Of a stretch of DNA of 64,000 nucleotides, positions 6,760 to 35,743 are shown piece by piece. The notes below the pieces were generated by a model, which was given only the letters and a program-made list of their open reading frames with translations, made no database searches and was not told the origin of the DNA. The position numbers and the translations under genes are program-made. Within the stretch, counting starts at the first letter, position 1; each line of letters starts with the position of its first letter. This DNA comes from Candidatus Aminicenantes bacterium (GTDB lineage: Bacteria > Acidobacteriota > Aminicenantia > UBA2199), in the NCBI GenBank assembly GCA_963732485.1, contig CAVSZS010000010.1, positions 7,573 to 71,572 on the forward strand. The letters run 5' to 3'.

Positions 6760-10044
<3,285 letters not shown>

Positions 10045-10050
10045 CTGCCG

Positions 10051-11013: not shown

Positions 11014-11078
11014 GACATTCCCTCGGACTTGGATTTGCTGCATGATAGCACAAACAGGGGCTGACGCAAAGCCGAGAT

Positions 11079-11107
11079 CAGTGTTAGTGTTAGTGTTCAG
11101 TGTCAGC
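11079..11107. repeat. Stop-rich heptamer microsatellite (GTGTTAG x3-4); inverted partner at 13320-13350
   Basis: cagtgttagtgttagtgttcagtgtcag; reverse complement closely matches ctgacactgacactgacactgatcac at 13320. AT-rich relative to flanks. Confidence 0.6.
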
Positions 11108-11378
11108 AAGAAACTAAAACGATCGGTGTAGGTAGATGGTTTACGGTGTACGTGAAGAGAGAGGAAATCTGAAGTGTAGATTCCAAATCCAAATTCAAAT
11201 AAGAAGCAATTCAAGCTCCAATTCGATATTCCAAAACGAAAGCCCCATGCGATTGCATTTCTTCGTTTGGGGCATTTGGTCATTGGAATTTGAATTTATT
11301 TGGAATTTGGTGCTGTACTGAATTTTATTCTTACCCTACACCTTACGCCTCATACCCTGCGCCGAGTCAAAGCCCTGC

Positions 11379-15255: not shown

Positions 15256-15315
15256 CTCTTTCGTTTTTCCTTATTGACAGGACCGCCGATTACTGATATA
15301 TCAGATATCAGAACA

Positions 15316-16229
15316 ATGGCCATGAAGGGCATGATTTTCGATATCAAAAAATTCGCCGTGCATGACGGCCCGGGCATCCGCAGCACCGTTTTTTTCAAAG
15401 GCTGCCCCCTGCGCTGCCTCTGGTGCCACAACCCCGAGGGCATATCCCCGGCCCGGGAGATCATGGTCTTTTCCGGCCGCTGCCTCAAGGGCTGCCGCGA
15501 CTGCCTGGCCGTCTGCCCGCGGGGGGCGCTGGACAAGCGCCGCGGCGCCATCGTCCTCGACCGCTCGCGCTGCGACGGCTGCGGCGCCTGCGCCGACGCC
15601 TGCGCAGCCGAAGCGCTGCAGGCGACGGGGCGGGAAATGAGCGTCAGCGCGGTGCTGGACGAGCTGGCCAGGGACGCCCCTTTTTATCGCGAATCTGGCG
15701 GCGGCGCCACGTTTTCCGGCGGCGAGCCCCTGCAGCAGCCCGAATTCCTGCGCGAGCTCCTGCGGGCCTGCCGCGGGGAAAAGATCTCCACCGTTGTCGA
15801 CACTTCGGGCCAGGCGCCGTATTCAGACTTCGCGAGCATCCTGCCCCTGGCCGACCTGTTCCTCTTCGACCTGAAGATCGTGGACGACGCCCGCCACCTG
15901 ACGCCTGACCGGCGCCTCCAACCGCCTGTTGCTGGCGAACCTGCAAACGCTTTCCCAAGCCGGCGCGCCGCTGGCCGTCCGCCTGCCGCTGGTCCCCGGC
16001 TGCAACGACGCGATTCGCGACCTGGAGCAGGCTGGCCGACTTTTGCGCCGCCCTGCCCCGGCGCCACCCGGTCCATCTTCTCCCGTATCACCGCGGCTAT
16101 ACCGGCAAGCTCAAACGCCTGGGCCGCGACGCGGCGCTCGACGCCACTCTGCCCCCCAAGGCGTCGGACGTGGAGCAGGCCGCCAATATTTTTCGCGCCC
16201 GTGACCTGATCGTAACCATCGGAGGCTGA
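15316..16229 (+). CDS. Glycyl-radical enzyme activating enzyme (radical SAM, PflA-like) carrying two apparent single-base frameshifts (~15900 and ~16033)
   Basis: N-term MAMKGMIFDIKKFAVHDGPGIRSTVFFKGCPLRCLWCHNPE (CxxxCxxC) plus ferredoxin-like Cys clusters. Continues in frame +1 (RLTGASNRLLLANLQTLSQAGAPLAVRLPLVPGCNDAIRDLEQ), then a third frame (LADFCAALPRRHPVHLLPYHRGYTGKLKRLGRD...IVTIGG*) ending TGA 16227-16229. Confidence 0.6.
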
Positions 16230-16230
16230 C

Positions 16231-18601
16231 ATGAACGCCAGGATCAAGAAACTGCGCGCCCGCTCGCTGCGGGCTGTTCCCGCCCTGTCCAGCGAGCGCG
16301 GCCGCCTGCTGACCCGCTATTACCGCAGTGGCGCCGCCGACGGCCTCTCCGTCCCTCGCCAGCGCGCCGGCGCCTTCGCCTTTCTGCTGGCCAACAAGAA
16401 GATCGCCATCCTCCCCGACGAGCTGATCGTCGGCGAACGGGGCCCGGCGGCCAAGGCCACGCCATCCTACCCCGAGATCACCTGCCATTCCCTGCGCGAC
16501 CTGGACGTGCTGGACAGGCGCGAGAAGACCCGCTTCCGGGTCAGCGCCGCGGTCCGCCGCGATTTCGCCGCCGAGATCATCCCCTATTGGCGCGGCAAGA
16601 CCATGCGCGAGAAACTGTTCGCGCACATGGCGCCCGAATGGCTGGCCGCCTACGAGGCGGGAGTGTTCACCGAGTTCATGGAGCAGCGCGCCCCCGGCCA
16701 CACCGTCTGCGGCGAAAAGATCTACGCCAAGGGGCTCCGCGACCTGCAGGCCGAGGTCCGCGCCAGCCTGGCGGCCCTTGATTTCCTTGCCGACCCGCAG
16801 GCGCTGGCCAGGCAGGAGGAGCTGCAGGCCATGGAAACGGTCGCCGAAGGCATGATCGTGTTCGCCGGCCGCCACGCCGCCAAGGCGCGGCAATTGGCCG
16901 CGCGCGAGAAGAACGCCGCCCGCAAGCGGGAATTGCTGCGCATCGCCGCTGTCTGCGAGCTCGTGCCCGCCAATGCCCCGCGCGACTTCCACGAGGCGCT
17001 GCAGCACTACTGGTTCATCCACCTGGGCGTCATCAGCGAAGCCAATCCCTGGGACGCCTTCAATCCCGGCCGCCTCGACCAGCATCTTCTCCCCTTTTAC
17101 CGCCGCGGCCTGGCCGACGGCAGCCTGACCCGCGAAAAGGCCCGCGAACTGCTGCAGGCCTTCTGGGTGAAGTTCAACAACCACCCCTCGCCGCCCAAGA
17201 AGGGGGTCACGGCCGAGGAGAGCGGCACCTACACCGACTTCGCCCTGATCAACACCGGCGGCGTCGACCCCGAGGGCGAGGACGGCGTCAATGAGGTCTC
17301 GTTCCTGATACTGGAAGTGATCGAGGAGATGCGCCTGCTGCAGCCCAGTTCCATGGTGCAGGTGAGCCGCAAGAACCCCGACGCCTTCCTGCAGCGGGCG
17401 CTGAAGATCGTGCGCAGCGGCTTCGGCCAGCCTTCGCTCTTTAATTCCGAGGCGCTGGTGGCGGAAATGCTGCGCCAGGGCAAGTCGCTGGCCGACGCCC
17501 GTTGCGGCGGCGCCTCGGGCTGCGTGGAGACCGGCGCCTTCGGCCGCGAGGCGTACATCCTGACCGGCTACTTCAACCTGGTCAAGGTGCTGGAGATCAC
17601 CCTCAACAACGGCCGCGATCCGCTCAGCGGCAAACGGATCGGCCTGGAGACGGGTGACCCCGAAAGATTCCCGGACTTCGCCGCCCTGCTGGCCGCCTTC
17701 GAGAAGCAGCTGCGCCATTTCGTCGACATCAAGGTGCGCGGCAGCAACATCATCGATCGCCTCTACGCCCGCGACCTGCCGGTCCCCTTCCTCTCGCTGC
17801 TCATCGACGACTGCATCGCGACTGGCAAGGACTACCACGACGGCGGCGCCCGCTACAACACCTCCTACATCCAGGGTGTGGGGCTGGGAACGACCACCGA
17901 CGCCCTGAGCGCCATCCGCAGCCAGGTGTACGATGAAAAAAGCCTGTCCATGAAAACCCTGCACAAGGCGCTGGCCGCGAATTTCCGCGGCAACGAAAAA
18001 ACCCGCCAGCGGCTGCGCAACAAGTCGCCGCGCTACGGCAACGACGACGACCGCGCCGACGATATCACGCGGGCGCTGTTTGAAATGTTTTTCCGCGCCG
18101 TCGATGACCGGCCCAACATGCGCGGCGGCCGCTACCGCATCAACCTCCTGCCCACCACGGTGCACATCTATTTCGGCAGGAAGACCGGCGCCACCCCCGA
18201 CGGGCGCAAGGCCGGCGAGCCGCTTTCCGAGGGCATCTCGCCGGTGCAGGGCGCCGACCGCTGCGGCCCCACGGCGGTGCTCAAGTCGGCGGCCAAGATC
18301 GACCACCTGCGCACCGGCGGCACGCTGCTCAACCAGAAGTTCACCCCGCAGCTCCTTGCCGGCGACGAGGGCATCGCGCGCCTCGGGCCACCTGGTGCGC
18401 GCCTATTTCGGCATGAACGGCCATCACGTGCAGTTCAACGTGGTCGACGCGGCCACCCTGCGCGCCGCCCAGGCGCACCCCGAGAAATACCGCGACCTGA
18501 TCGTGCGCGTGGCCGGCTACAGCGATTACTTCGTCGACATCGGGACGGATTTGCAGGAAGAGATCATCGCGCGCACCGAGCACCAGGAGTTTGGCGAATA
18601 A
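16231..18601 (+). CDS. Glycyl radical enzyme, PFL2/glycerol-dehydratase-like (eliminase type); frameshift near 18385
   Basis: ATG 16231 with GGAGG 5 nt upstream. ~790 aa with GRE fold; Cys-x-Glu active-site loop (CGGASGCVETGAFG); C-terminal glycine-radical motif RVAGYSDYF appears only in the +1 frame after ~18385 (HLVRAYFGMNGHHVQFNVVDAATLRAAQAHPEKYRDLIVRVAGYSDYFVDI...). Extra G in a ctcgggcc run. Confidence 0.7.
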
Positions 18602-18636
18602 CCGGATTTATTAAAGACTCTTTCTTCCACTCGATT

Positions 18637-19107
18637 CTATTCTAGTTTTTTAAAACGCTCAGCTTCCTCATAGTTACCTAAACTTTCGCAAATTTGTGCC
18701 GCTTCTTTAAAACGCCTTTCGTTTTCCAATCTAGTCAGGTAGAACAATTCAATTTCATTTTTATAAACCTGACTCCAATTATAGACACTTCCATTATGAG
18801 ATGTGCGACTATATCCGCTCAAAGCCATTTCGTAAAAACTCTTCTCTTTTCTAAGTTTTCTTATATCATTAACAATAGTTATCAAACCAACCTTGTCAAA
18901 ACAAATAATAGATGTTTTTATGCCCAGTTCCCTTTCTATTGTCGGATGATATTTTTCGGGAATATCAGAGCCATATGCAGCAAGAATTTTCCTGTTCTCA
19001 GAATTCTCTAAAAGTCCAGCTAGAGTCGAATTCATTTCTTCAGTTATTTTTCTGCAAAACTCAACATCGTCTTCAATCTTCTTAGCATTTTTCCTAAATA
19101 TGCTCAT
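18637..19107 (-). CDS. Hypothetical protein on an AT-rich (~35% GC) island; no recognizable domain
   Basis: 156 aa from ATG 19105-19107 (MSIFRKNAKKIEDDVEFCRKITEEMNSTLAGLLENS...). The longer track ORF extends into the adjacent lipoprotein gene and is trimmed. Composition differs strongly from the ~65% GC flanks. Confidence 0.45.
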   Translation of the reverse strand: MSIFRKNAKKIEDDVEFCRKITEEMNSTLAGLLENSENRKILAAYGSDIPEKYHPTIERELGIKTSIICFDKVGLITIVNDIRKLRKEKSFYEMALSGYSRTSHNGSVYNWSQVYKNEIELFYLTRLENERRFKEAAQICESLGNYEEAERFKKLE

Positions 19108-20079: not shown

Positions 20080-23000
20080 TTAGCGTTTTTTCTCTTTCCA
20101 GAAGAGTAGTCCGCCGGTATAGGTCAATTTTATATTCATTATCCTCTGGGCAGGCGGGATCGAGGCCAGTTCGGCCGTGCCCTGGATGATGGTGTAGTCT
20201 TTGAACATGCCACCGCCGGCAAAGCGACCGGCTTCCTTGACGCCGGCTACGGTGCCGTCCCCGCAGTAATCGAGACAGATATCGTAGAACGTCATGGTCG
20301 AGTCCTCCGGGGCGTTGCAGTCGTCGGAGGCGGAGGCGGTGTCGGGCGGGCGCTGGTAGGTGTTGAAATAGATGTGGGAACGCAGATATTCATCCGGCAG
20401 GATGACCGGATCGGGATCGAATAACTTCTCGTATTGGGCCGAGTCGGGGAAAGTGAAGTACCAGCCCCACTTGTTGGCGACTTTGATGGAGGTTGCGTTC
20501 AGAGTGTTGTCAGTCCACGAGAGAGCCACCAAGTCGCCGATCAGGATGTCATTTTTTTGCACCGCTTCGTCATTGACCGTAGTGGTACCGTCGCGCAGGG
20601 ACACCAACTTGCCGTAAGTGGGATTGGTGCGCGACCGCGTGCGGTCGCCGGTGCCGAACGTCACCCAGAGGTTGGCGCACTTGTCGAATGCGACGGCGGG
20701 CGGCAGGAAGATGGGATCGAAGCTGCGCACCAGGACCTGCTCCCCATTTAAAAAACCGGGGCCGCCGGAGGACGGGGTCGCCTGGATGGTCAATTCGTTG
20801 TTGGCGCTGTCGACGTTGCCGATTACACCCATGGCGTGGGAGACGGAGCCTATTACGCTCTGGTCCTCGGTATAATTGGCGACGCTGTTGACCCTGACGA
20901 TGGCGCCGCTCACGTTGCTGATGGTGGCGCTGGCGCTATCTGTTAATACATGCTTGAACAATTGGTAGGTTTTCCAGTCGCCTGGTGTGACCTTCGAAAT
21001 GTCGGTTTTAAAGAGATGGCCGGCCACATTACCAAAATAAATGGTGTCCAAATAGCCATTGTTATCGCGGTCCACGGCGGTCAGGCCGGAGGGAATCGAA
21101 TAATTGAACTCGGGCTTCCTGGTCAGGAGCCGCACCCCGGATACGGCGGTGTCGATGGCGACTGTATTCGTATCGTCATCCACGCCGTTGGTCGGGTCGT
21201 ACCCGATCATCCACACCAGCTCGCCACTGGACGCATCGATAACGAAAACGGCCTTGCCTTTCAAGTCGTTCGGGTTTTCGTTGTTGAAGGCGAACCCGGC
21301 GGCAACGACAACGACCCAACGGTCGATGTTCTTCCCGGCGGTGGTGTCGTAATAATTGATCTTGCCGATGATCGGCTTGTCCCAGCTCTCGCCGCTGTAG
21401 GTGCCGTCCTCGAACTTCCACAGCACGTTGGGCTGGCTTTCCACGCTGGTGATGTCCAGGGCATAATAGGCGTTGCCGCCGTGTCGCAGCCCGAAAGCCA
21501 GGATTGTCTTCCATACATTGGAGGCCCCCCGGTAATAGATGTCTTCGGCGCTCATGCGGCCGTCAACAGTGAAGGTGTAATCCCGGTCCACCAGGATGCC
21601 GGTCAGCGACGGCAGGATGGCGTCAGGGATAAAACCCCAGAGCTCCTCGCCGGTCAAAGCGTCGATCTGGTGCAAAACTCCGTCATTGGAACCGGTGTAG
21701 AGTACTTTCCGGCGCGCCGCCTTGTCGGTGAAGAGCTTTTCGTAGCAACGCGCGTCCTCGGTCTTGTCGAGGCCGGAAGTCGTGCCGCAGTCGCTCGGGT
21801 TGAGGCTGCTAAGGTATTTTTTGCCGATCAGAGGCGGCCCGACGTAGGCGATATCGGAATGGAAGATATCGCCTAAAATCTTCCCCAGCGCGGTTGTCCC
21901 GTTGTTCATGGTCGTGATGATGTAGTTGGCGCTGGTGTCGTTCACGGTCAGGCCCAAGGTCTGGAGCGAGTCCCGGTTGGCCAGGGTGAAGGCAACCGGG
22001 GTCGTGTCATTGTTGCTGTATAGATTGCGGGCAGCAGTACGCTCGCTTAATAACGGCGCCGCGTCCCACGTTTCCTTGTCGGCCATTTCGATCGTGCGCT
22101 TGCAGGTCAGGTTGGGATACGTCTCGGAGCGTGGATTAGCGCTCTGGCATTCGAATTCGGTCTCGTATTTCGTGGCGCAATCATCGCCGTCCAGGCCGTC
22201 GTTCTCGAAATCCGGGCACCACACGTCGGTCACCTTGAACGACTGCAGGTGCCCCAGCCAGAACGGGGAATCGGCGGAAAGCTCCGCCGACGGCATGAAG
22301 TAGCCGACATAGGACGCGCCCTCGCCCACGTTGGTGGTCACGCGCTTGGGAGCGGTGAAGGCGGCGAAGGCGAAGTCGCGCAGGTTGATATTGTTGATGA
22401 TCGACGTCAGGGCCGATTTCAGCTGCGTGGCGTTGGAAGCGGTGTAATACTGGCCGCCGCCGTTGCGGGCGGTCTCGGCCAGCATCATGTTGTCCATCGT
22501 CAGGCCGACGACATAGGTCGAGATGGTCTGCTTGCCGATCATGTCGGCGAAGTTCGGGTTGGTTTCCGGGAACAGGTCGTAGTTGTACATCAGGTAGGCC
22601 ACGTCATCGAGATAGTCGCTGCCGTTGGTGTCCCAGCAGGTGTTGCCCGGGCAATAGGTGCGGCTGGAACTGCTCAGGGTGGGGTCGTTGGCATCGAGGT
22701 CGCCCCAGCCGGAAGTACAAACCCCGGTTGTCGAATTAAGGACCATGGGCGCTTTCGAGCTGGTTTTGAAAACGGAATAGTTGTATTTGTAGTCTGTGAA
22801 TTGATCTTGGGTGGACTGGCCGTCGGTGATAATGATCACGTAGCTGTTCCGGCAGTAGGGCTGGATGGGCGTGGCGGCAAGCATTGTGGACGCGGTGCCG
22901 GAGGTGTACTTGGCCGTGTTGGGCATATAAGAGCCGCCTCCCTTGAAATACTTCCAGATGTCGGCCAGCGCCTCGGCGAGGGGCGTCCAGGTCTCGGCGG

Positions 23001-24052
23001 CAACGCCCCCGATGGTGGACTTGAAGGATGCGAGGTCGAAGGAATCCGATATGGAGTATAACTGGCTGGCCGCCGTCGTTGGATGAGGAGAATATGGTCA
23101 AGCCCAGGCGGCAATCCTCGTGCACATCGTCGGCCAGGTTCTGCAGTGTACTGCGGGCGACGCGGATCCTGACCAGGCCGGCCTCCTGCAGGACGCCGTT
23201 CTCGTCGGGGAACTTCCCCTGGTTGGCGCCGCTGGCCCAGGCGCTCACCTCGTTGATCTGGGTTTCCGTGGCATAATAGGCCAGCCACTTCAGGTAATTG
23301 AGGTCATACCGGTTGCCACTGTACCCCTCCTGGGTGGACCCATAAAGCGTGATGGGGATGGATTCCTCATAATTGGAATCGGCAGTTTCGCTGAACGACA
23401 CGCTGTTGTCAGTGGTGTCGATCACTTTGTGGACGTTCAGGTAGAGGTATGGATAGGTCGAGTTGGGGTTGGCGCTGGTCCCGGTCACGGTGATTTCGTA
23501 GTAGTACCTTCTTCTGCTCCCCGAGCCCTCCGTTTTCTGAGCGACATTTGAAATGGTCGCGGTATAGTTACAGCTGCAGACGGAGTTGCTGACATTGCAG
23601 AGGAAAGAGATCACCTGGCCGATCGCAGGTGGCGTGGGGTAATAATACTCGTCGGGGTTGCTGTAATAGACCTTCCATTTGCGCGTAGGACTGGAGCTGA
23701 TTGTGCTGTCCCATTGGGCGTAGGAATCATATTCGCATCTGTAGTTGATCCTGCCGCGGTTGATGTAGAACGTCTTGATCACATTCAGACGGAGGTCGTT
23801 CCAGTTAAAAATACCATCAGTATCGCCAGGCCTAGCTTCGCTCAGTATCGTGTTCGGGTTGTAGCTCGGGTGGAAGATCACGGTCTGCATGGAGCCGGAG
23901 TTGTCCATCAGGACCATGAGGTTGGGCTTGATCTTGTTCGTGCCGGTGACCCCCATGAATAGCTCGCGGTCGTCGGTCAGGCGCTGGGCCCAGGCAGGAC
24001 CCGCCAGGACAATCAACGCCAGGATGAAAAAGAAATACTTTTTTTTCAACAT
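20080..24052 (-). CDS. pilY1: Type IV pilus tip-associated adhesin PilY1 (N-terminal vWA domain + C-terminal beta-propeller), one frameshift near 23045
   Basis: N-terminal ORF: signal peptide, vWA MIDAS LMVLMDNSGSMQ. After ...SSSNDGGQ the frame switches (true continuation QLYSISDSFDLASFKSTIGGVAAETWTPLAEALADIWKYFKGGGSY) into the 948-aa ORF (IIITDGQST, PilY1/PilC propeller). Confidence 0.7.
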
Positions 24053-26929: not shown

Positions 26930-27661
26930 TCACGATTTGATCTTGAAGCGCAGGCCGCTGAAGACAAAGGTCAGGGCGTTGAAAAGCAGGCCGAGCAGCG
27001 CGCCGAGGACGGCGAAGGCCAGGAAGCCCGCGATGCCGCCGAGGGCGCCGAAGAACAACCCGCCCAGGAACTTGCCGCGCATCTCCTGGAGCATGACCGG
27101 AAACTGGTAGATCAGGTCGCCGAGCAGGTTGAAGATGCCGAACGAGGCGCCGAAGATGACCCCGAGGACCAGTCCGAGCCCGCCCAGAAAAATGACCAGC
27201 GAAAAAACGCGCACCGAGCGGATATGGATCTCGTCGCCGGCCATGCGGCGTTCCGGCTTGGTTGTCCCGGCCTTGGGGCTGGCGCCGCAGAAACGGCAAT
27301 ACGCGTCGTGCTCGTCCATGCGCGAATGGCAGAAGCGGCACAGCGTTTCCGGCTTCTCGCCGACCGCTTCTTCTTTTGCCGCCACGGCCGGCCGGGGTCT
27401 TTCAACTGTAGCGGCCTCGGGCTGCAGCACGAGCGGCGTCGCCTCGTGCTCGTATGGGTCGGCGGAATTCCAGGCGCTGCCGTCGTACATGTACCAGCCC
27501 CCGGTCTTGCCGCCGAGCATCCAGAAACGGTTCTCGTCGTCGCGGAGCATCATTTTCTTCAGCTCGGACTTCATGTCCTCGGCCGAGACCTCACCGGAGG
27601 CGTGGCGCTCCTTCAGATCTTTATAAAGCCTTTCGAGGTCCCTGAACTTTTTCGCTTCCAT
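26930..27661 (-). CDS. Zinc-ribbon (CxxC-x10-CxxC) membrane protein, hypothetical; occupies the dedD-like position downstream of folC
   Basis: ATG 27659-27661 (MEAKKFRDLERLYKDL...); LCRFCHSRMDEHDAYCRFCG zinc ribbon; C-terminal glycine-zipper TM region. Confidence 0.55.
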   Translation of the reverse strand: MEAKKFRDLERLYKDLKERHASGEVSAEDMKSELKKMMLRDDENRFWMLGGKTGGWYMYDGSAWNSADPYEHEATPLVLQPEAATVERPRPAVAAKEEAVGEKPETLCRFCHSRMDEHDAYCRFCGASPKAGTTKPERRMAGDEIHIRSVRVFSLVIFLGGLGLVLGVIFGASFGIFNLLGDLIYQFPVMLQEMRGKFLGGLFFGALGGIAGFLAFAVLGALLGLLFNALTFVFSGLRFKIKS

Positions 27662-28958
27662 GCTTTTTCCTCCGCGCGCCATGCGCGAGCGCAACGGCCC
27701 TTAACCCGCCTACCAGGTATAATGAACCGCACCCTATTATAGTTCTTTTGAATTTTTTTGCAACCGCCAGGGCCTGCGCGGGATCGCGCGCTACGAGGCA
27801 CTTCCTGCCCGGAAAGTAGCGCGCCAGCTCCCCGGAAGGCAGCGCCCGCGGCGAAGCGGGCGCGCACAGGACAACGTGGGCCGCCAGCGGCGCCAGCATG
27901 CGGGCCATGCCGGGATACTGCTTGTCGCACAGGACACCGAACAGCAGCGTGAAGCCGCGGATGTTCTCCTCGCGCAGGTAATCCGTCAGGACGCGGATGC
28001 CGGCGCGGTTGTGGCCGCCGTCGAGGATGACAGGCGGCCGGCCGCCCAGGATTTCGATGCGCGCCGGGATGGTCATGTCGCGGATGCCGGCGCGAATGGC
28101 GCCGTTGCTGATCGCCAGGCCCCGTTCCTTCAGCGCGTCGATGGCGGCCACGGCCATGGCTGCGTTGCGGGCCTGGTGGCGGCCGCGCTGTGTTACGCGG
28201 AAGCGGTATTCATGGCTGGCACTGAAGTAGCGGCAGGCGTAGCCGCCGCGTTTTTTTTCGACTTCCAGGCGCCGGGGCGGGGCAAAGGCCTCGATCAGGG
28301 GCGCGGACGCGGCGCGGGCCGCGTCGCGAATGACGTGCGCCGCCGTCGTGCGCGGCGGGCAGCCGCTGACAATGGGCACGCCCGGGCGCGCGATGCCGGC
28401 CTTTTCCGCGGCGATGGCGGCCAGGGTCTTGCCCAGGATGTCCATATGGTCCATGGCGATGTTGGTGATCAGCGAAATCTCGGGCGTCACCGTGCTGGTG
28501 GCATCCAGGCGTCCGCCCAGGCCCACTTCCAGCACCACCCAATCCGCCCGGCGCCGGGCGAAATGATACAGGGCGGCCAGGAACAGGGTCTCGAAAAAAG
28601 TGGGAAGGTTGGCGATCGCGCCTTCGGCCAGCAGCGGCGCGGACAGGTCGCGGACGGCGCTGATCGCGCGGGCGAACGCGGCGGGCGCGATCGGTTCCCC
28701 GTCCAGGCGGATGCGCTCGCGCACGTCCTGCAGGTGCGGCGAAGTGAACAGGCCTACCCGCCAGCCGGCAGCCTGCAGGATGGCGGCGATGTAATGCGAG
28801 GTGGAACCCTTGCCGTTGGTGCCGGCGACCTGCACGTACCTGGCGCCGCCGCGGGCAAAGGGCGCCCGCTCGATTACGCGGCGGATATTTTCCAGCGAAA
28901 GCTTGCCGGTTTCTCCCTGTATCTGGTTCAGGTAGGAAAGTGCCGCGGCATAGCGCAT
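27621..28958 (-). CDS. folC: Folylpolyglutamate synthase / dihydrofolate synthase
   Basis: Mur-ligase fold: P-loop VAGTNGKGST, SPHL..., HN..AAIA motifs; 445 aa. Confidence 0.85.
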   Translation of the reverse strand: MRYAAALSYLNQIQGETGKLSLENIRRVIERAPFARGGARYVQVAGTNGKGSTSHYIAAILQAAGWRVGLFTSPHLQDVRERIRLDGEPIAPAAFARAISAVRDLSAPLLAEGAIANLPTFFETLFLAALYHFARRRADWVVLEVGLGGRLDATSTVTPEISLITNIAMDHMDILGKTLAAIAAEKAGIARPGVPIVSGCPPRTTAAHVIRDAARAASAPLIEAFAPPRRLEVEKKRGGYACRYFSASHEYRFRVTQRGRHQARNAAMAVAAIDALKERGLAISNGAIRAGIRDMTIPARIEILGGRPPVILDGGHNRAGIRVLTDYLREENIRGFTLLFGVLCDKQYPGMARMLAPLAAHVVLCAPASPRALPSGELARYFPGRKCLVARDPAQALAVAKKFKRTIIGCGSLYLVGGLRAVALAHGARRKKHGSEKVQGPRKAL

Positions 28959-28982: not shown

Positions 28983-29216
28983 TTAGTTGTCCTGCCCGCC
29001 CTCGCCGTCCTCGAATTCGTTCTTGACGCCCAGGATGTTGGAAGCGCCGTCATAGATCAGGCGGGTGGCTTTCTTCTGTTCCTGCAGTTGCGCAATGACG
29101 TCCTTGACCCGGGCCAGCTCTTCCTCGATCTTGGCGTCGATTATCTCAATCTGCTTCTTCGCTTCCCGGAGAGTGGATTCATAGAACGCCTTGGCCTCGA
29201 TCTTCAGTTTTTCCAT
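28983..29216 (-). CDS. Small coiled-coil protein (77 aa), hypothetical
   Basis: Heptad-rich (KIEAKAFYESTLREAKKQIEIIDAKIEEELARVKDVIAQLQEQKK), acidic tail; tightly packed between folC and the kinase gene. Confidence 0.45.
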   Translation of the reverse strand: MEKLKIEAKAFYESTLREAKKQIEIIDAKIEEELARVKDVIAQLQEQKKATRLIYDGASNILGVKNEFEDGEGGQDN

Positions 29217-29228
29217 CAGTTCACCTCG

Positions 29229-32200
29229 TTATTTTTTTATTGTCATCGGAACGGTTTTCCAAACTTTGACCCGCAATGAATCCTTGACGGCCGGCTTGTA
29301 CTTCCAGGTCTTGATCAGTTCGCTCAGGATGGTGTTCAGCTGGCCGACATTGGATTTCTGCAGCAGGCGCACGGTCTCCACGTCGCCGTTGTGATTGATC
29401 AGCACGGTGAACATCAGGGTCTGATCGCCCTGCATGCTGCTGCGCACGGAGGCGGGAATGTTCGGCCCCGGAGTGGAGATGGCGACGGGCGCGGTGTCGA
29501 CGTTGTTCATGGGGACGATGTCGCCTTCCTTGATGCGGTTCTGCTCGGCGCGCTTCAGCTCGTCGGCCTTATTGCGGTCCTCTTCTTCCTTCTTCAGGCG
29601 GTCGGCCTCCTCCTGCTTCTTGCGGCTTTCCTCTTCCTGCTGCAAGCGGGCGGTTTCTTCAAGCTTCAGGCGCTCTTCCTCATCCTTTTTCAGGCGATCA
29701 GCCTCTACTTTCTTGCGCCGGTCTTCCTGGATTTTTTTCTTTTCCTCTTCGGCCTGGATCTGTTTCAGCTCCTCTTCCTGCTTTAGTTTCGCCTCGTCCA
29801 GCAGCTTCTGGGTGGCGGCGAGCTCATCGGCGATCTTCTTCATCGCCGGGGTCTGGGTGTCGGCGGGCGCCGGCAGGCCGGCGGCCGTGGTGGCGCCTGC
29901 GGCCTGGGTAACGGGCTTGCGATCGACGGCCGGGGCCGCGGGCTTGTTGAGCACGAAGAAATACACTCCGGCGGCGATGGCGCCGACCAGCAGCACGACG
30001 GCCAACGGCAGCAGGGGGAATTTTTTCTTTTCCTTTTCCAGTTCATGAAAAAGGGATTCGGGCTTGAACAGCTCTTTTTCCGGCACGGCCTGCCTTTTGG
30101 CTGCGACCGGGGCTTTGTCGTCGTCGAAATTGATGCTGACGGCGGCTCCAGACGGCGCCGGCCGGGGAACCGGCGGCGGCGGCATGGGGGGCGGGGGCAC
30201 GACCTGGATCTCCGGCAGCGGCTTCGGCTTTTCCGCCGGCGGCATGGGCTTGGGGATTTCGCGCACCTTGGGAGTGTACGGCAGGGGCTTCAGGTCGACC
30301 TTGATCCCCTCGCGATGGATGTCGCCTTCGAATAGACTGTAGATGAAATGAGAGAGGTGGACCGGGCTCGGGGCGCGGTCGTACTTCTTGTGTATGAAGG
30401 CCTCCAGGTCGGCGATCATGGCCGCGGCGCTCTGGTAGCGCTTGTCGCACTCTTTGCTCAACGCGGTCAGGAGAATCTTTTCCAGCATCGGGTCGATGTC
30501 GGGATTGACCTGGCGCGGCGGGATGATCTCGCCGTTCTGCACCTTCTTGAGCACCATCATTTCCGTGGTGTCCAGGAACAGCTTCTTGCCGGTCAGCAGT
30601 TCGAACAGCACCACGCCTGCCGAATAGAGGTCGGAGCGGTAATCGATGCCGCTCTCGCCGCAGGCCTGCTCCGGGGACATATAGAGCAGTTTGCCTTTGA
30701 GCGCCCCCGACAGCGTCTGGTGGATCTTGATCGCGGCCTTGGAAACGCCGAAATCGGTCAGCTTGACCTCGCCGTTGTAGGAGATCAGGATGTTGGGCGG
30801 CGAAACGTCGCGGTGGACGATCTCCAGCGGGCGGCCGCGGCTGTCCTTGGCCTTGTGGGCGTAATTCAGCGCCTCGAGTATCTTGATGGTCAGCGAGATG
30901 GCGATCTCTTCGGGGAACCACTTGTCATGCTCGCGCAACCGGGTCTGGATCTCGCGCAGGTCCTTGCCCAGCACGTATTCCATGGCGATAAAATAGTAAT
31001 TGTCCTTGCGCCCCAGGTCGTAGATCTGGACGATGTTGGGATGCGAGAGCTCGGCCGCGATCTTGGCCTCGTCGACGAGCATCTCGATATACTTGTCGTC
31101 CTCGCCGTAGCCGGAGAGGATCTTCTTGATGGCGATCACCTTTTCGAAGCCCTTGACCCCCTTTTTCTTGGCCTTGTAGATCTCGGCCATGCCGCCGCGG
31201 GCGATCATGCCCAGCAGGACGTAATCCCCCACTTCGTTGGGGTTGTCCGCGGGAGCGACCTTGATCTCGGGCATCGCCTCCGCGACCGCCCTGGCCTCGG
31301 GCACAGGCACCGGAGCCGACGTCAGGGGCTTGGCCGCCGGTGGTTCTACGCGCAGGATGTCTTCACCCAGCTCGATCACTTCGTCCTGGATGGTCTCGTG
31401 GATCTCTTTGACCATGACCTTTTCCGCTGGCGGTGGCGCCGGCCGCGGCTCGAGTTTCACGGTCACCTTCGTCGGGGGCGGCGGCGGCGGTTCGGGGCGC
31501 GGCGCCGCGGGGGGTACGATCACGGTCGGCTTGGCGGGGGCGGCGCTTTTCTTCTGCAGGCCGAGCCCGGAAAGGGTGTCTTCGAATTTGCGGGCGATAT
31601 CGTCCTCGATCTTGCGCATCTGGCTGCCCGGGGCTTCGCGCTTGACCTGGTGCGGGCGCAGGCCCTCAATACTGGCGTCGATCCTCCCGGCGCTGGAGGC
31701 CGGGACGGAGCCGGCTGCGGGCGCGGCAACGGTTTTTTTGGGTTGGCGCAGGCTGTCCAGGTCGAAGGCCGCGGTCGGGGCGGGCCGGCTGTCCGCTTTT
31801 CTCGGCGCGGCGGCAGGCTGCGGCTCGACCTTGAGAAGCACGGTGCGGCCGGGGTCGGCCGGGCGCGCTTCCGGCTTCTTGGCCGGCGGTTCCGCTTTCT
31901 TGGGGGCGGCCTTGCCGCCCTCGCCCAGGTCGATCTCAAACGCGGGGACACTGTCCATCTTCTGGATGATATCGCCGAAAATGTCGGCGGAGCTCAGCTT
32001 GTTCTCCTCGTCGTCATCGAATTTCGGCGCCGGGATCTTGGCCGTGTCGAACACGGGGATGCGGGTGTTCGCCACGGCGGCGGTGGGGGCCAGTTCAGCT
32101 TCCGTCACATTGAGCAGATCCAGCACGCGTTTGCGCAGCTTGTCGCGGTCCAGGGGCTTTTCAAAAAAATCGCTGGCCCGGTACTGGGTGATGGCCTGGT

Positions 32201-32471
32201 GGCGGTATTCCGTCCCCTTGTAGATGGCGCTGATGATTATGATCTTCATGGCCGGGTAGTCCTGGGAAACGGCCAACGACAGGTTGAAACCGTGGAAGCG
32301 CGGCAGCATGGCCGCGGTGATCATCAGGTCGTACTGGTGGTCGCGCAACAGTTGCTTGGCCGTCTCGCCGTCGCTGGCGACCGCCACGGCGAACGCCGGG
32401 GCGTGGAAAAGCTCTTTCACGGCATGTATGGTCGATTCGTCGTATTCCACCAGCAAAATGTTCTTGGTCAT
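29229..32471 (-). CDS. Multidomain Ser/Thr protein kinase: degenerate N-terminal receiver domain, Hanks kinase domain, single TM, KE-rich coiled coil, C-terminal TonB_C-like domain
   Basis: REC-like fold with phosphoacceptor Asp replaced (DLMITAAMLP); kinase motifs GxGxxA-like loop, HRDVSPPNIL, DFG, SPEQ; Pro-rich linkers; TM FPLLPLAVVLLVGAIAAGVYFFVL; C-term GDQTLMFTVLINHNGDVETVRLLQKSNVGQLNTILSELIKTWKYKPA (TonB C-terminal fold signature). Confidence 0.75.
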   Translation of the reverse strand: MTKNILLVEYDESTIHAVKELFHAPAFAVAVASDGETAKQLLRDHQYDLMITAAMLPRFHGFNLSLAVSQDYPAMKIIIISAIYKGTEYRHQAITQYRASDFFEKPLDRDKLRKRVLDLLNVTEAELAPTAAVANTRIPVFDTAKIPAPKFDDDEENKLSSADIFGDIIQKMDSVPAFEIDLGEGGKAAPKKAEPPAKKPEARPADPGRTVLLKVEPQPAAAPRKADSRPAPTAAFDLDSLRQPKKTVAAPAAGSVPASSAGRIDASIEGLRPHQVKREAPGSQMRKIEDDIARKFEDTLSGLGLQKKSAAPAKPTVIVPPAAPRPEPPPPPPTKVTVKLEPRPAPPPAEKVMVKEIHETIQDEVIELGEDILRVEPPAAKPLTSAPVPVPEARAVAEAMPEIKVAPADNPNEVGDYVLLGMIARGGMAEIYKAKKKGVKGFEKVIAIKKILSGYGEDDKYIEMLVDEAKIAAELSHPNIVQIYDLGRKDNYYFIAMEYVLGKDLREIQTRLREHDKWFPEEIAISLTIKILEALNYAHKAKDSRGRPLEIVHRDVSPPNILISYNGEVKLTDFGVSKAAIKIHQTLSGALKGKLLYMSPEQACGESGIDYRSDLYSAGVVLFELLTGKKLFLDTTEMMVLKKVQNGEIIPPRQVNPDIDPMLEKILLTALSKECDKRYQSAAAMIADLEAFIHKKYDRAPSPVHLSHFIYSLFEGDIHREGIKVDLKPLPYTPKVREIPKPMPPAEKPKPLPEIQVVPPPPMPPPPVPRPAPSGAAVSINFDDDKAPVAAKRQAVPEKELFKPESLFHELEKEKKKFPLLPLAVVLLVGAIAAGVYFFVLNKPAAPAVDRKPVTQAAGATTAAGLPAPADTQTPAMKKIADELAATQKLLDEAKLKQEEELKQIQAEEEKKKIQEDRRKKVEADRLKKDEEERLKLEETARLQQEEESRKKQEEADRLKKEEEDRNKADELKRAEQNRIKEGDIVPMNNVDTAPVAISTPGPNIPASVRSSMQGDQTLMFTVLINHNGDVETVRLLQKSNVGQLNTILSELIKTWKYKPAVKDSLRVKVWKTVPMTIKK

Positions 32472-32531: not shown

Positions 32532-33032
32532 TTACAAGATCTCTCTACCGGCATATTTTTCGAACATGCGGATCTTGTCCCTGACCTTGAAGGTGATGGG
32601 CATGTTGATCATGGTCAGCAGGAAGCCGCTGACGAAAAAGTGGAACGTGCGCGCGTACGGCATGCCCAGCAGGGTGATGAGCAGGCCGAAGATGGCGATG
32701 ACCTCGGCAAACGAAAGCAGGACGATGTCGATGACCCGCCAGCGCTGCAGCAGGGCGGCCAGGGTGAAGTCCTCGCGGACCAGGCGCGGGGAAAAGTAGA
32801 TCGTCTTGCGCACAGCCAGGACGGCGATGATCAGCATGATCGCTATGATGTTCAGGATGCTCCAGGCGTCGCGCACTCCGCGGTTGGGGGGACGGTTCCC
32901 GGCGAGCAGGTAGGCGACCAGGGCATAGGCGACGATCGACGCCAGCAGGGACAGGCTGATGATCATCGTCAGCCGCGACTCGCGGCGAATGTGTTCCCTT
33001 TCTATTTTTTGTTTTTCAAATTCTGCCAGCAT
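32532..33032 (-). CDS. Hypothetical 4-TM membrane protein
   Basis: 166 aa, four predicted TM helices; first gene of the kinase/folC minus-strand block. Confidence 0.45.
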   Translation of the reverse strand: MLAEFEKQKIEREHIRRESRLTMIISLSLLASIVAYALVAYLLAGNRPPNRGVRDAWSILNIIAIMLIIAVLAVRKTIYFSPRLVREDFTLAALLQRWRVIDIVLLSFAEVIAIFGLLITLLGMPYARTFHFFVSGFLLTMINMPITFKVRDKIRMFEKYAGREIL

Positions 33033-33155: not shown

Positions 33156-34631
33156 ATGTGCGGAGTATTGGGAATTTTCTCTAGCGAGCCGGTCATCGGC
33201 CCGCTGTACACCGGGTTGCTGACCCTGCAGCATCGCGGCCAGGATTCGGCCGGCATCCTCACCTTCGACGGCCGCTACCACCTGAAGAAGGGCAACGGCC
33301 TGGTGCGCGATATTTTCGACGAGCACAACATCCAGCGGCTCAAGGGCACCGTCGGCCTCGGCCACACCCGCTACCCCACCGTGGGCGAAGGCTCGGGGGA
33401 GGACGCCCAGCCGTTCTGGCTGAACCACCCCTATGGCATCGCCGCCGTTCACAACGGCAACGTGGTGAACTTTTTCGAGCTGAAGAAGGAACTGTTCGAA
33501 AAATCCCACAAGATCATCAATTCCAACTGCGATGTCGAGGTCATCCTCAATGTGTTCGCCGAGGCGCTGGAGAAGGACGCGCGCCAGGAGATCACCCCGG
33601 AAAGCGTCTTCAGCGCCATCCGCCAGGTTTACAAGCGGGTGAAGGGCGCGTATTCGGTGGTGTTCCACATCGCCGGCAAGGGCATGGTCGGCTTTCGCGA
33701 ACCCTACGGCGTGCGCCCCCTGCTGTTCGGCATTGATCGCCGGCAAATGCTTCCCGGATTCGGCTTCGCCTCGGAGAGCGTCACCCTCGACCTGCTGGGT
33801 TTTTCCGACATCCGCGACGTCCCCCCCGGCTCGGCCATTTACATCGATGAGAACCGCGTGGTCCACGAAAAAAAGCTGCAGGCCGCCCCTTTCCGCCCCT
33901 GCATTTTCGAGTATATTTATTTCGCCCGCCCCGATTCCTACCTGAACAAGATCAACGTCTACCAGTCGCGCGTGGACCTGGGCAAGAAGCTGGCCCGCGT
34001 CATCCAGAAAAGCGGCCTGGAGATCGACGTGGTGGTGCCGGTTCCCGACTCATCGCGGCCGGCGGCCATCGAGATCGCCCGCCTGCTGAAGCTGAAATAC
34101 CGCGAGGGGCTGGTAAAGAACCGCTACATCGGCCGCACCTTTATCATGCCCGGCGACCAGGTCCGCCAGCGCACGATCCGCCACAAGCTGAACCCCATTG
34201 CCGACGTGTTCCAGGACAAGAACGTGCTGATCGTGGACGATTCGATCGTGCGCGGCAACACCTCGCGCTCCATCATCCAGATGGTGCGCCAGGCCGGCGC
34301 CAGCAAAGTATATTTCGTCTCCTACTCCGCCCCGCTGACCAATCCCTGCGTCTACGGCATTGACATGCAGACCAAGTCCGAGTTCATCGCCAACGGGGCG
34401 AGCGAGGCGGAGATCGCCGCCCGCATCGGCGCCGACCGCGTGCTCTACCAGGACGTCCATGACATGGAGCAGGCGGTGCGGCGGCAGAACCCGGCCATCC
34501 GCCACTTCTGCACGGCCTGTTTCTCCGGCAAGTACCCGACCGGCGACGTGTCGCGGAACTACCTGGACCAGATCGAGCAGGAGCGCGAACAGCTGAAGCT
34601 GAAGCAGAAGGAACTGGCCCTGAAATTTTGA
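33156..34631 (+). CDS. purF: Amidophosphoribosyltransferase
   Basis: Starts MCGVLGIFS (N-terminal nucleophile Cys); GATase type II + PRTase (VLIVDDSIVRGNTS), C-terminal Fe-S cysteines. Confidence 0.9.
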   Translation: MCGVLGIFSSEPVIGPLYTGLLTLQHRGQDSAGILTFDGRYHLKKGNGLVRDIFDEHNIQRLKGTVGLGHTRYPTVGEGSGEDAQPFWLNHPYGIAAVHNGNVVNFFELKKELFEKSHKIINSNCDVEVILNVFAEALEKDARQEITPESVFSAIRQVYKRVKGAYSVVFHIAGKGMVGFREPYGVRPLLFGIDRRQMLPGFGFASESVTLDLLGFSDIRDVPPGSAIYIDENRVVHEKKLQAAPFRPCIFEYIYFARPDSYLNKINVYQSRVDLGKKLARVIQKSGLEIDVVVPVPDSSRPAAIEIARLLKLKYREGLVKNRYIGRTFIMPGDQVRQRTIRHKLNPIADVFQDKNVLIVDDSIVRGNTSRSIIQMVRQAGASKVYFVSYSAPLTNPCVYGIDMQTKSEFIANGASEAEIAARIGADRVLYQDVHDMEQAVRRQNPAIRHFCTACFSGKYPTGDVSRNYLDQIEQEREQLKLKQKELALKF

Positions 34632-35743
34632 TGCACAGCCACCTGCCGATCTCCGGTTCCCTGGGTGAATTCGACTTCGCCGCCATCCTCGCCCGCATGC
34701 ACGCCCAGGCGCTGGACGGGCAATTGAAGGTCAGCGCCGCCCGCTCCACCAAGACGCTCTGGCTGCAGGACGGCTGCATCGTGTTTGCCCAGTCCAGCCT
34801 GACCGACGACTCCCTGGGCAGTTCGCTGCTGCGCCGCGGCCTCATCACCGCGCCGCAACTGGAAAAGAGCCGCGAACGCATGAAGCGCGGCAAGTGCCGG
34901 CAGGGCCGGGCGCTGCTGGAAATGGGGCTGCTCTCTTCCGAGCAGCTGTGGAGCGAGATCGCCGCCCAGCTGCGCGCCATCGTTTTTTCCCTGTTCCCCC
35001 TGCGCGCCGGCCGCTACGACATCGGCCGGCTGCCCGAAAGCGGCCGGGAGAACATCCAGCTGGCGCTGCCGGTGGCGACGGCGATCCTCGAAGGCGTGCG
35101 CCTCATCCTCGACAAGGAGTTCATCGAGAGCCGCTTCGAGCCCGGCATGGCCCTTTACCCCTCCCCGGACCGCTGCATCGGCGCCGTGGCCCTGAAGCCG
35201 CACGAAGCCCATGTGCTCTCCCTGGTGGCCGAGGCCACCCCGCTGGAGGAGGTCGTGGAACGCAGCGAGCTGCTGCGCTGCGATACGCTCAAGGTTCTCT
35301 ATTCTCTTCTGAAACTCGAGATGATCTGCGACCGCAAGCAGACGGGCCGGGCCCCGACACCGCACGCCCTGCCCAACCCGCCCACCACCTTCACCTCCTT
35401 CGACGAGGTTCTGCAGCATTACAACTCCAAGTTCGAGACCATCTACCGGGTACTCTCCAAGGAGATCGGGCCGGTGGCCCATTCCATCCTCACCGATGCC
35501 ATCACCTCCATCCAGGAATCCATCCCTGCCTGTTTCCAGAGCCTGGAGATCCGCCCCGACGGGCGCATCGATGAAAAATCGGTGATGAAGAGCGTCTGGT
35601 ACGAGAATTTCGCCGACAACAGCGGCGAATTCCTGCGTGGGCTCGAGGAGATCCTCTACGCCGAGGTCTTCGCGGTCAAGCGCCACCTGGGCAAAGAACA
35701 TGAGGCATCGATCCTGAAATGGATCAGAAAGTCCGGAAATTGA
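34631..35743 (+). CDS. DUF4388 domain protein
   Basis: N-terminal GSLGEFDFAAILARMHAQALDGQLKVSAARSTKTLWLQDGCIVFAQSS matches the DUF4388 pattern; TGATG overlap with purF stop. Confidence 0.55.
   Translation: MHSHLPISGSLGEFDFAAILARMHAQALDGQLKVSAARSTKTLWLQDGCIVFAQSSLTDDSLGSSLLRRGLITAPQLEKSRERMKRGKCRQGRALLEMGLLSSEQLWSEIAAQLRAIVFSLFPLRAGRYDIGRLPESGRENIQLALPVATAILEGVRLILDKEFIESRFEPGMALYPSPDRCIGAVALKPHEAHVLSLVAEATPLEEVVERSELLRCDTLKVLYSLLKLEMICDRKQTGRAPTPHALPNPPTTFTSFDEVLQHYNSKFETIYRVLSKEIGPVAHSILTDAITSIQESIPACFQSLEIRPDGRIDEKSVMKSVWYENFADNSGEFLRGLEEILYAEVFAVKRHLGKEHEASILKWIRKSGN

Follow-up and report, generated by a model that had tools for sequence, protein, structure and literature searches.

Can a bacterial Ser/Thr kinase carry, on the far side of the membrane from its catalytic domain, the very domain with which TonB docks its partners, and if it does, what might the two accomplish together? 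The question is raised by one gene in a 64,000-nt stretch of DNA, here called the window, that belongs to an uncultured Candidatus Aminicenantes bacterium of the Acidobacteriota (contig CAVSZS010000010.1 of assembly GCA_963732485.1, positions 7,573 to 71,572). The gene occupies 29229..32471 on the minus strand and encodes a protein of 1080 aa. As far as architecture and topology are concerned, there is little doubt that its product is a bitopic inner-membrane receptor Ser/Thr kinase, equipped with a pseudo-receiver and a TonB-style periplasmic arm. The full explanation, in which this architecture is combined with a passive arm, docking of a partner and relay of that event to the kinase, is assigned a probability of roughly 0.45.

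The open reading frame (ORF) begins with ATG, preceded about 8 nt on its 5' side by AGGAG, and its coordinates are those given in an earlier note made from the letters of this DNA. The N-terminus of the homologs likewise reads MTKNILLVEYD, which supports the same start. All strings quoted in the earlier note are present in the protein, namely DLMITAAMLP (residues 48-57), HRDVSPPNIL (553-562), DFG (573-575), SPEQ (599-602) and, at the C-terminus, TVLINHNGDVETVRLLQKS...WKYKPA. An exact-sequence look-up of the 1080-aa protein returned no record, and the homologs P0001, P0109 and P0068 stood in for it in look-ups. A scan for sigma-70 promoters and terminators gave scores no better than those of shuffled sequence. 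On the N-terminal side of the transmembrane (TM) helix, residues 1-817 comprise the pseudo-receiver, a linker with two conserved motifs, the Hanks kinase and a Pro-rich juxtamembrane segment; on its other side lies the arm. All segments named below are on the minus strand with the gene.

The arm ends in residues 978-1080 (29232..29540), which hold a TonB_C domain and a conserved N-terminal extension of the form KEGDIVP..VD..PV.ISTP.P. The Pfam TonB_C profile matches residues 1018-1075 with 21.4 bits when the whole protein is scanned, below the gathering threshold (GA) of 24.6, and with 26.5 bits, above it, when the scan is restricted to the last 103 aa; the NCBIfam model tonB_Cterm gives 23.1 for the same 103 aa, and there are weak matches to TonB_2 and to the AgmX/PglI tail as well. 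A family profile built from 47 C-termini was compared with all PDB sequences, and its top 14 matches were all TonB C-terminal domains (CTDs), with 1xx3 at E = 9e-5; the alignment to Escherichia coli TonB begins in the segment before the CTD, at about residue 150. The AlphaFold2 (AF2) model of the domain has a mean predicted local distance difference test score (pLDDT) of 94.7, and a Foldseek search of the PDB with it placed TonB, FusB and HasB CTDs in all of the first 17 positions. The best of these is 6i97_D, the FoxA-bound CTD of Pseudomonas aeruginosa TonB (TM-score 0.85, rmsd 1.8 Å over 88 columns), and TolA domain III follows at much weaker scores. Identity to the solved CTDs is low, at 14-20%. 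Because profile, PDB search and modelled fold agree, the C-terminus is, on these predictions, a genuine TonB_C domain, as had been proposed from the letters. SPOR and PEGA, the domains named in the earlier note as those that would speak against this call, were considered for the C-terminus and rejected, as neither profile matched there.

Conservation within the domain is uneven. The least variable elements are the strand at 1066-1078 and the WKYKPAxK that precedes it (mean entropy 1.1-1.2); V1068, K1069 and W1071 are invariant in the strand, as is K1063 just before it, and the strand corresponds to the one that pairs with the TonB box in E. coli TonB. The α1 region, equivalent to that of Q160 and the YP motif of TonB, is the most variable of the domain (entropy 2.5), and the equivalents of Q160, Y163 and R166 are G, I and S in the window protein. 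A PxIPA motif in the clade to which the window protein belongs mirrors the PQYPA motif of TonB.

The topology follows from the segment that joins the kinase to the arm. The juxtamembrane segment (residues 701-817, 30021..30371) contains 23% Pro, has pLDDT below 50 for 749-818, varies from 112 to 224 aa across the family and ends in the basic cluster KEKKK. Directly after it, residues 818-841 (29949..30020) form the sole segment with a Kyte-Doolittle hydropathy above 1.6 (peak 2.71), and AF2 places a helix at 821-841, in keeping with the single TM helix that had been read from the letters. The basic cluster before a single hydrophobic segment therefore puts the kinase in the cytoplasm and the C-terminus in the periplasm (N-in).

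In TonB and TolA, an N-terminal TM helix bears the motor-binding motif SHLS, which couples the protein to the ExbBD or TolQR motor; domain II, which spans the periplasm, comes next, and the CTD at the end engages its target by β-strand addition (PMC12204202). The SHLS motif was not found in the TM helix of the window protein, which lies 817 residues from the N-terminus; the helix contains neither Ser nor His, and His is missing from the TM window of 104 of 109 homologs. No ExbB or ExbD gene was found in the conserved gene block described below or among the 25 window ORFs scanned, to which this search was limited. Because its TM helix has no SHLS and sits so far from the N-terminus, the protein is most likely not an energy-transducing TonB, and the arm is most likely passive.

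Between membrane and TonB_C domain lies a long spacer. It starts with a flexible segment rich in Ala, Pro and Thr (residues 842-894, 29790..29948; pLDDT below 50 for 842-889) and continues with an ER/K-rich helix (895-977, 29541..29789) that the full-length AF2 model draws as one unbroken helix of 83 residues with pLDDT 58-78. The charged segment as a whole, 876-985, is about 110 aa long, with 60% charged and 16% hydrophobic residues and 38 i/i+4 pairs of opposite charge, and in its best heptad register only 25% of the a/d positions are hydrophobic. The charged coiled coil of about 130 aa that the earlier note had described for this KE-rich segment was accordingly rejected, as no heptad register exceeds that 25%; the helix looks instead like an ER/K single α-helix, which would be about 12 nm long. 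Across 109 homologs the distance from TM helix to TonB_C domain is 118-212 aa (median 145), and it is bridged in two ways: the window clade uses some 50 flexible residues and the 83-residue ER/K helix, its ER/K-rich spacers having Pro/Gly-free runs of 90-116 aa, whereas more distant members have Pro-rich spacers with 10-21% Pro. Because the length is conserved while stiff chemistries interchange, the spacer appears to be a rod that sets the reach of the domain at its tip; such a pattern is what one would expect of a part in which reach and stiffness count but sequence is immaterial.

The kinase domain (residues 413-700, 30372..31235) is recognised without difficulty. Pkinase (PF00069) matches residues 420-682 with 137.8 bits against a GA of 31.7 (E = 5.9e-40), and the nearest solved kinase structures are StkP (E = 1e-39) and PknB (E = 1e-35). 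In an alignment of 66 homologs K449, E468, D555, N560, D573-F-G, T586, S599-P-E (with E601), D610 and R678 are invariant, T586 being the Thr of the activation loop. The catalytic loop departs from the usual form: it reads HRD[VI]SPPN in all of 120 homologs, while the aligned motif of StkP is HRDLKPQN, so that in the window protein (HRDVSPPN) the catalytic-loop Lys is replaced by Ser557. The Gly loop is A-R-G-G-M-A rather than the canonical GxGxxG. Judged by alignment, the Lys of the catalytic loop is thus the one catalytic residue that the kinase has lost, and the earlier description of its core as intact has to be amended for that Lys and for the Gly loop. Pfam gave no PASTA match in the protein, and the NCBIfam model PknB_PASTA_kin (NF033483) scored 260.6 against a cut-off of 450, with the kinase part alone covered.

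At the other end of the protein, residues 1-125 (32097..32471) form a receiver (REC) domain. Response_reg (PF00072) matches residues 5-116 with 61.7 bits in the whole protein and 65.5 bits with the domain alone (GA 30.2), and AF2 draws a (βα)5 fold with pLDDT of about 94. Alignment to CpxR puts E9-Y10 at the acidic pair (DD) and A53 at the phosphoacceptor D51, a position occupied by Ala in 112 of 113 homologs and by Glu in the remaining one; the T site (S81, invariant) and the K site (K105, at least 90% conserved) are both retained, and the motif ITAAMLPRFHGF around the acceptor position is nearly invariant. A recent review calls a receiver a pseudo-receiver (PsR) once one or more of DD, D, T and K are missing, and an aspartate-less receiver (ALR) if D is among them (PMC12632262). 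Because D is missing, the domain is a pseudo-receiver of the ALR type under this definition, which bears out the reading made from the letters. From the residues at its active site it is predicted to be unable to accept a phosphoryl group from a histidine kinase, and its role is most likely that of a regulatory, dimerisation or output-docking module.

Pseudo-receiver and kinase are joined by a cytoplasmic linker (residues 126-412, 31236..32096), predicted to be disordered and composed of 16% Ala and 16% Pro, for which pLDDT stays below 50 apart from one short helix, and whose length varies from 148 to 356 aa in 109 homologs. Two motifs stand out in the 66-sequence alignment. The first, LSSADIFGDII in the window protein (residues 159-169, 31965..31997) and LSSxDIFGDII as a general form, sits inside linker that otherwise cannot be aligned; F165 and D167 are invariant, and D163 and G166 at least 90% conserved. 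The second, RKIEDDIARKFEDTLSGLGL (residues 286-305, 31557..31616), coincides with an AF2 helix at 285-298. Its T299, G302, L303 and G304 are invariant, and K287, I288, E289, I292, E297, L300 and S301 are at least 90% conserved, a pattern that makes it a candidate phospho-site or docking helix.

How far this layout extends can be judged from its relatives. More than 100 full-length homologs (41-85% identity) share the layout of REC and Pkinase, together with TonB_C, and where named they are annotated as "protein kinase" or "TonB family protein" in metagenome-assembled genomes (MAGs) of Candidatus Aminicenantes or Acidobacteriota. In a scan of one genome per species, 33 loci encode the family, all in Aminicenantes/Acidobacteriota-type MAGs and none in a cultured organism; some of these loci carry evidently wrong bin labels. 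The number of homologs, the 33 loci and the fixed, operon-like gene block described below suggest that selection acts on the architecture as a whole.

Searched against 1.84 billion representative proteins, the C-terminal profile gave 9026 matches at E <= 1e-3 and 869 at E <= 1e-10. The best 137 new matches were classified locally, a sample of them being checked with Pfam. Besides the REC-kinase-TonB_C family itself, these 137 include kinases that lack REC and have a canonical HRDVKPxN followed by a TM helix and one to three TonB_C domains (e.g., P0137, HEX9639142.1, from an Acidobacteriota MAG, and P0171), degenerate kinases with two to four TonB_C domains (e.g., P0136), kinase-less proteins in which the same REC subtype is combined with a TM helix and TonB_C and has Glu at the acceptor position (LVEAMLPKKHGF), BlaR1-like Peptidase_M56 proteins with three or four TonB_C domains, and secreted proteins with three to six in tandem. 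The relatives of the P0137 kinase exchange their ectodomain, which may be PEGA/CarboxypepD_reg, TPR, PD40 or TonB_C. P0136 (UCH95681.1) consists of a degenerate kinase without HRD..N, a TM helix and four TonB_C domains, and is encoded in the same 9.1-Mb Aminicenantes genome (CP070627, locus L002) as the family member P0109; a gene for a PP2C phosphatase is found there some 3.7 kb downstream of the kinase. The kinase-less proteins P0212, P0222, P0240, P0256 and P0257 are 570-710 aa long and contain the same pseudo-receiver subtype with Glu at the acceptor position, a long linker, one TM helix, a spacer and a strong TonB_C match of about 75 bits, which suggests a self-standing REC-TM-TonB_C module.

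Five shorter matches of 270-330 aa with TM helix and TonB_C (P0130, P0131, P0133, P0134 and P0139) were considered as canonical TonBs and dropped; their spacing of about 150 aa from TM helix to domain and their near-family bit scores suggest C-terminal fragments of the same kinases, truncated at contig ends. Because independent proteins with Pkinase and one to four TonB_C domains exist, the fusion of kinase and TonB_C is recurrent and not unique, contrary to the notion of a one-off. A literature search for kinase-TonB_C fusions found no description of one, in line with the earlier note, whose author knew of no characterised example. Across these relatives TonB_C is, to judge by domain composition, a reusable periplasmic binding module in Acidobacteriota, found on kinases, REC-TM proteins and M56/BlaR1-like proteins.

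The kinase gene is also embedded in a conserved neighbourhood. The block has a fixed order, which runs from a gene for a 166-aa membrane protein through the kinase, a 77-aa acidic helical protein and FolC to a protein of about 250 aa with Zn-ribbon and membrane character; in this order, the genes are present at 34, 35, 31, 30 and 29 of 35 loci, most absences falling at contig ends, and the gaps between them in the window are 60, 12, 24 and -74 nt. The multi-pass 166-aa protein (32532..33032, minus strand, as is the rest of the block), directly upstream of the kinase, has no Pfam match. The FolC-like Mur-ligase gene (27621..28958) encodes Mur_ligase_M and Mur_ligase_C, and the last gene (26930..27694) has weak Zn-ribbon matches only. 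The 77-aa protein (28983..29216), also without a Pfam match, starts 12 nt downstream of the kinase stop, with GAGG upstream of its ATG, and is 65-99% identical even where the kinases are only about 43% identical. Because it is conserved far beyond the kinase, it is the strongest candidate for a protein that serves the kinase specifically, as partner or as substrate.

How could such a protein work? A docking-and-relay mechanism is proposed here tentatively, with the chances leaning against it. The TonB-like arm would be passive, would not be driven by the proton motive force and would span the periplasm; its TonB_C domain would pair, by β-strand addition, with an extended peptide left exposed on a partner in the outer membrane or the periplasm, and the edge used for docking would be its most conserved strand, 1066-1078. 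Engagement or clustering of the partner could then change the oligomeric state of the kinase, as in kinases of the PknB/StkP type, and this change would lead to autophosphorylation of the activation loop at the invariant T586 and on to phosphorylation of cytoplasmic targets. Candidate targets would be the kinase's own linker motif (T299/S301), its own pseudo-receiver and the co-located 77-aa protein.

Several points weigh against this reading. β-Strand addition by the arm is assumed by homology to TonB, and constraints of the fold could explain part of the strong conservation seen in the last strand. The single α-helix is called from composition and from an AF2 helix of moderate confidence. 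In the full-length AF2 model the N-lobe of the kinase has pLDDT below 50 over 379-457, and the invariant change of Lys to Ser, together with the A-R-G-G-M-A loop, leaves kinase activity an unproven prediction. The conserved block and the 25 window ORFs scanned contain, besides lacking ExbB/ExbD, no gene for a TonB-dependent receptor, a PP2C phosphatase or an FHA protein; no partner was identified among them.

Of the rival explanations, the one that survives best is the model of the earlier note, in which the TonB_C domain docks the TonB boxes of ligand-loaded TonB-dependent receptors and converts receptor occupancy into cytoplasmic Ser/Thr phosphorylation; a system of this kind would be a phospho-analogue of FecA-FecR-FecI. 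The fold is closest to TonB CTDs solved with such receptors (6i97, FoxA-TonB; 2gsk, BtuB-TonB; 2grx, FhuA-TonB), the PxIPA of the window clade mirrors PQYPA, the equivalent of the TonB-box-pairing strand is the most conserved, and the spacer is long enough for the outer membrane. Aminicenantes genomes do encode TonB-dependent receptors, one of them about 9 kb from the kinase at locus L003; however, none is conserved next to the kinase gene in the 35 loci. The substitution of G, I and S for Q160, Y163 and R166, in the region that is least conserved, also speaks against this model, and paralogs with three to six tandem TonB_C domains fit poorly with one-to-one docking of TonB boxes. On balance it is unlikely in this specific form. 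A broader proposal of the same kind is speculative and its odds are low: motor-independent Ser/Thr signalling across the envelope, in which the arm would read TonB-box-like strands on outer-membrane proteins, for example ligand-loaded TonB-dependent receptors, and would answer with direct cytoplasmic phosphorylation, TonB_C being then a general class of periplasmic sensor in Acidobacteriota and the diderm counterpart of PASTA.

The arm might instead do no sensing and only anchor or localise the kinase, holding it for instance at the outer membrane or at an envelope-spanning machine (the type IV pilus system encoded nearby is one), with regulation left to pseudo-receiver and linker. The related kinase-less proteins with pseudo-REC, TM helix and TonB_C are in its favour, as they indicate that arm and REC form a unit of their own, and minor-pilin and PilY1 genes follow the block at loci L001 and L003 and in the window; pilus genes are, however, absent beside the block at L002. 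Pseudo-receivers such as FrzS act as localisation and recruitment modules (PMC9811614). The conservation of the TonB_C strand fits sensing and anchoring alike and does not discriminate between them. This rival is rather unlikely.

The position of StkP and PknB, both PASTA kinases, as the nearest solved kinases raises another alternative, a sensor of the cell wall or of envelope growth, whose TonB_C domain would bind peptidoglycan or muropeptides and whose kinase would control the synthesis of the envelope or cell division. Association of TonB with peptidoglycan has been reported, other Acidobacteriota kinases with two to four tandem TonB_C domains echo PASTA repeats, and the kinase gene sits in a housekeeping block with FolC. 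Yet the block holds no cell-wall synthesis genes, profile scans of the window protein detected no PASTA, SPOR, LysM or OmpA_C-like domain, and the PknB_PASTA_kin score, far below its cut-off, comes from the kinase part alone. The 12-nm rigid spacer, moreover, seems designed to reach past the peptidoglycan layer. A role of this kind is considered distinctly unlikely.

The departures in the kinase domain could also mean that loss of the catalytic-loop Lys and of two Gly-loop glycines abolishes phosphotransfer, the fold serving as an interaction or allosteric module. Such a pseudokinase or scaffold would account for S557 in 120 of 120 homologs and for the ARGGMA loop, and clearly degenerate paralogs that combine a kinase without HRD..N with TonB_C do exist, one of them in the 9.1-Mb Aminicenantes genome mentioned above. 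Against it, the invariance of K449, E468, D555, N560, DFG, SPE, D610 and R678 in homologs down to 41% identity is hard to explain without catalysis, and some active kinases lack the catalytic-loop Lys; the idea is improbable. Finally, a true TonB paralog that transduces energy together with ExbB/ExbD, its kinase regulating or reporting transport, would explain the TonB_C fold and the periplasm-spanning spacer, but is disfavoured as very improbable by a TM helix that has no SHLS-type Ser/His and is not N-terminal, by 817 aa of cytoplasmic domain before it and by the lack of exbBD genes nearby.

The docking-and-relay mechanism is thus retained as the working explanation, and what remains to be described is the wider surroundings of the gene. 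A canonical TonB/ExbB/ExbD cluster was considered for the run of small ORFs at 11.4-14 kb on the minus strand and dropped, since a HAD-like protein, an exonuclease, a fragment of a methyltransferase and the like are encoded there. Twenty other ORFs of the window matched no TonB-dependent receptor, ExbBD, PP2C or FHA profile. The 166-aa gene is divergent from purF in the window and at the 21 loci where purF was found. Between purF and miaA lies a gene for a PATAN/DUF4388-domain protein (34628..35743, plus strand; E = 1.4e-17), which is syntenic only in the closer clade, at 20 of the 35 loci; proteins with a PATAN domain usually have to do with the control of motility. A 29-codon ORF was called between the miaA and PATAN genes at two loci (L001, 3772..3861; L003, 5558..5647) whose kinases are 44-85% identical to that of the window. 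On the opposite side of the kinase block from the PATAN gene is the minor-pilin/PilY1 cluster. A frameshift near 23061-23069 splits its PilY1 homolog (20080..24052, minus strand): the L001 PilY1 aligns with frame -1 (24043..23069) over its residues 2-322 and with frame -2 (23061..20083) over its residues 325-1335, and the tail of a 438-aa ORF (22736..24052) is rich in Arg and His, like out-of-frame sequence. The split gene is either a pseudogene or the product of an assembly error. Elsewhere in the window, at 6760..11283 (minus strand) and 15274..18645 (plus strand), are housekeeping genes for B12-dependent methionine synthase (MetH), MTHFR and a pyruvate-formate-lyase-like glycyl-radical enzyme with its activase, a context that fits an anaerobic lifestyle.

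Compared with known systems, the protein borrows from several and coincides with none. Its conceptual counterpart is FecA-FecR-FecI, where a bitopic inner-membrane protein contacts an outer-membrane protein with its periplasmic C-terminus and informs the cytoplasm; the two are unrelated in sequence, FecR, an anti-sigma factor, makes its contact through the signalling domain of the TonB-dependent receptor and not through a TonB_C domain, and a similar role for the kinase is hypothetical. BlaR1-like Peptidase_M56 sensors with TonB_C, such as TonB1 and TonB10 of Bacteroides thetaiotaomicron, likewise employ the domain outside a plain TonB, as the periplasmic module of what is presumed to be a signal transducer, and M56 proteins with three or four TonB_C domains are among the nearest relatives of the TonB_C subtype of the window protein; their output, however, is that of a metalloprotease-type sensor, with neither Hanks kinase nor pseudo-receiver.

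The pseudo-receiver resembles FrzS, CikA-PsR and RitR in having a receiver fold without acceptor Asp, a degraded acidic pocket and the T and K sites kept, and ALRs of the RitR type are targets of Hanks kinases. Unlike these proteins, the PsR of the window protein shares one polypeptide with a Hanks kinase and a membrane anchor, and it bears an invariant signature of MLPRFHGF and IYKGxEY that is common only to the kinase-less REC-TM-TonB_C proteins. With the TonB group (TonB of E. coli and P. aeruginosa, HasB and FusB) the protein shares the TM anchor, a periplasm-spanning domain II and a globular CTD, and the Pro-rich spacer of distant family members resembles that of TonB; it differs in a TM helix without SHLS 817 residues from the N-terminus, in the absence of ExbBD genes nearby, in the ER/K helix that serves as spacer in the window clade and in the divergent region of the YP motif (IP, and G for Q160). 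The use of TonB_C as a module on kinases, pseudo-receiver proteins and BlaR1-like proteins matters for annotation, since many "TonB family proteins" of Acidobacteriota and Bacteroidota are probably not energy transducers.

The closest parallel is with the PASTA kinases PknB and StkP, which have the same N-terminal cytoplasmic Hanks kinase with its conserved activation-loop Thr, the same long juxtamembrane linker and single TM helix, and a C-terminal extracytoplasmic part made of one or more small α/β binding domains. In the window protein, by contrast, the ectodomain is a TonB_C domain on a long rigid spacer rather than PASTA repeats, a pseudo-receiver and a linker of about 290 aa are added at the N-terminus, and the catalytic loop is HRDVSPPN instead of HRDLKPxN. 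Its host also differs in encoding TonB-dependent receptors, and because it does, this Aminicenantes bacterium has an outer membrane. Receptor-type Hanks kinases are understood almost only in Gram-positives, where PASTA domains sense the cell wall; to our knowledge, the routes by which diderms turn outer-membrane or periplasmic information into Ser/Thr phosphorylation are largely unexplored. All members of the present family come from uncultured organisms, so functional work will need heterologous systems. For such work the family offers a concrete candidate, a kinase with the reach-and-dock hardware of TonB and without its motor-coupling motif, and the kinase with pseudo-receiver and TonB_C arm can be placed beside PknB and StkP as an uncharacterised variant of the receptor-type Hanks kinase theme that is conserved across Aminicenantes.

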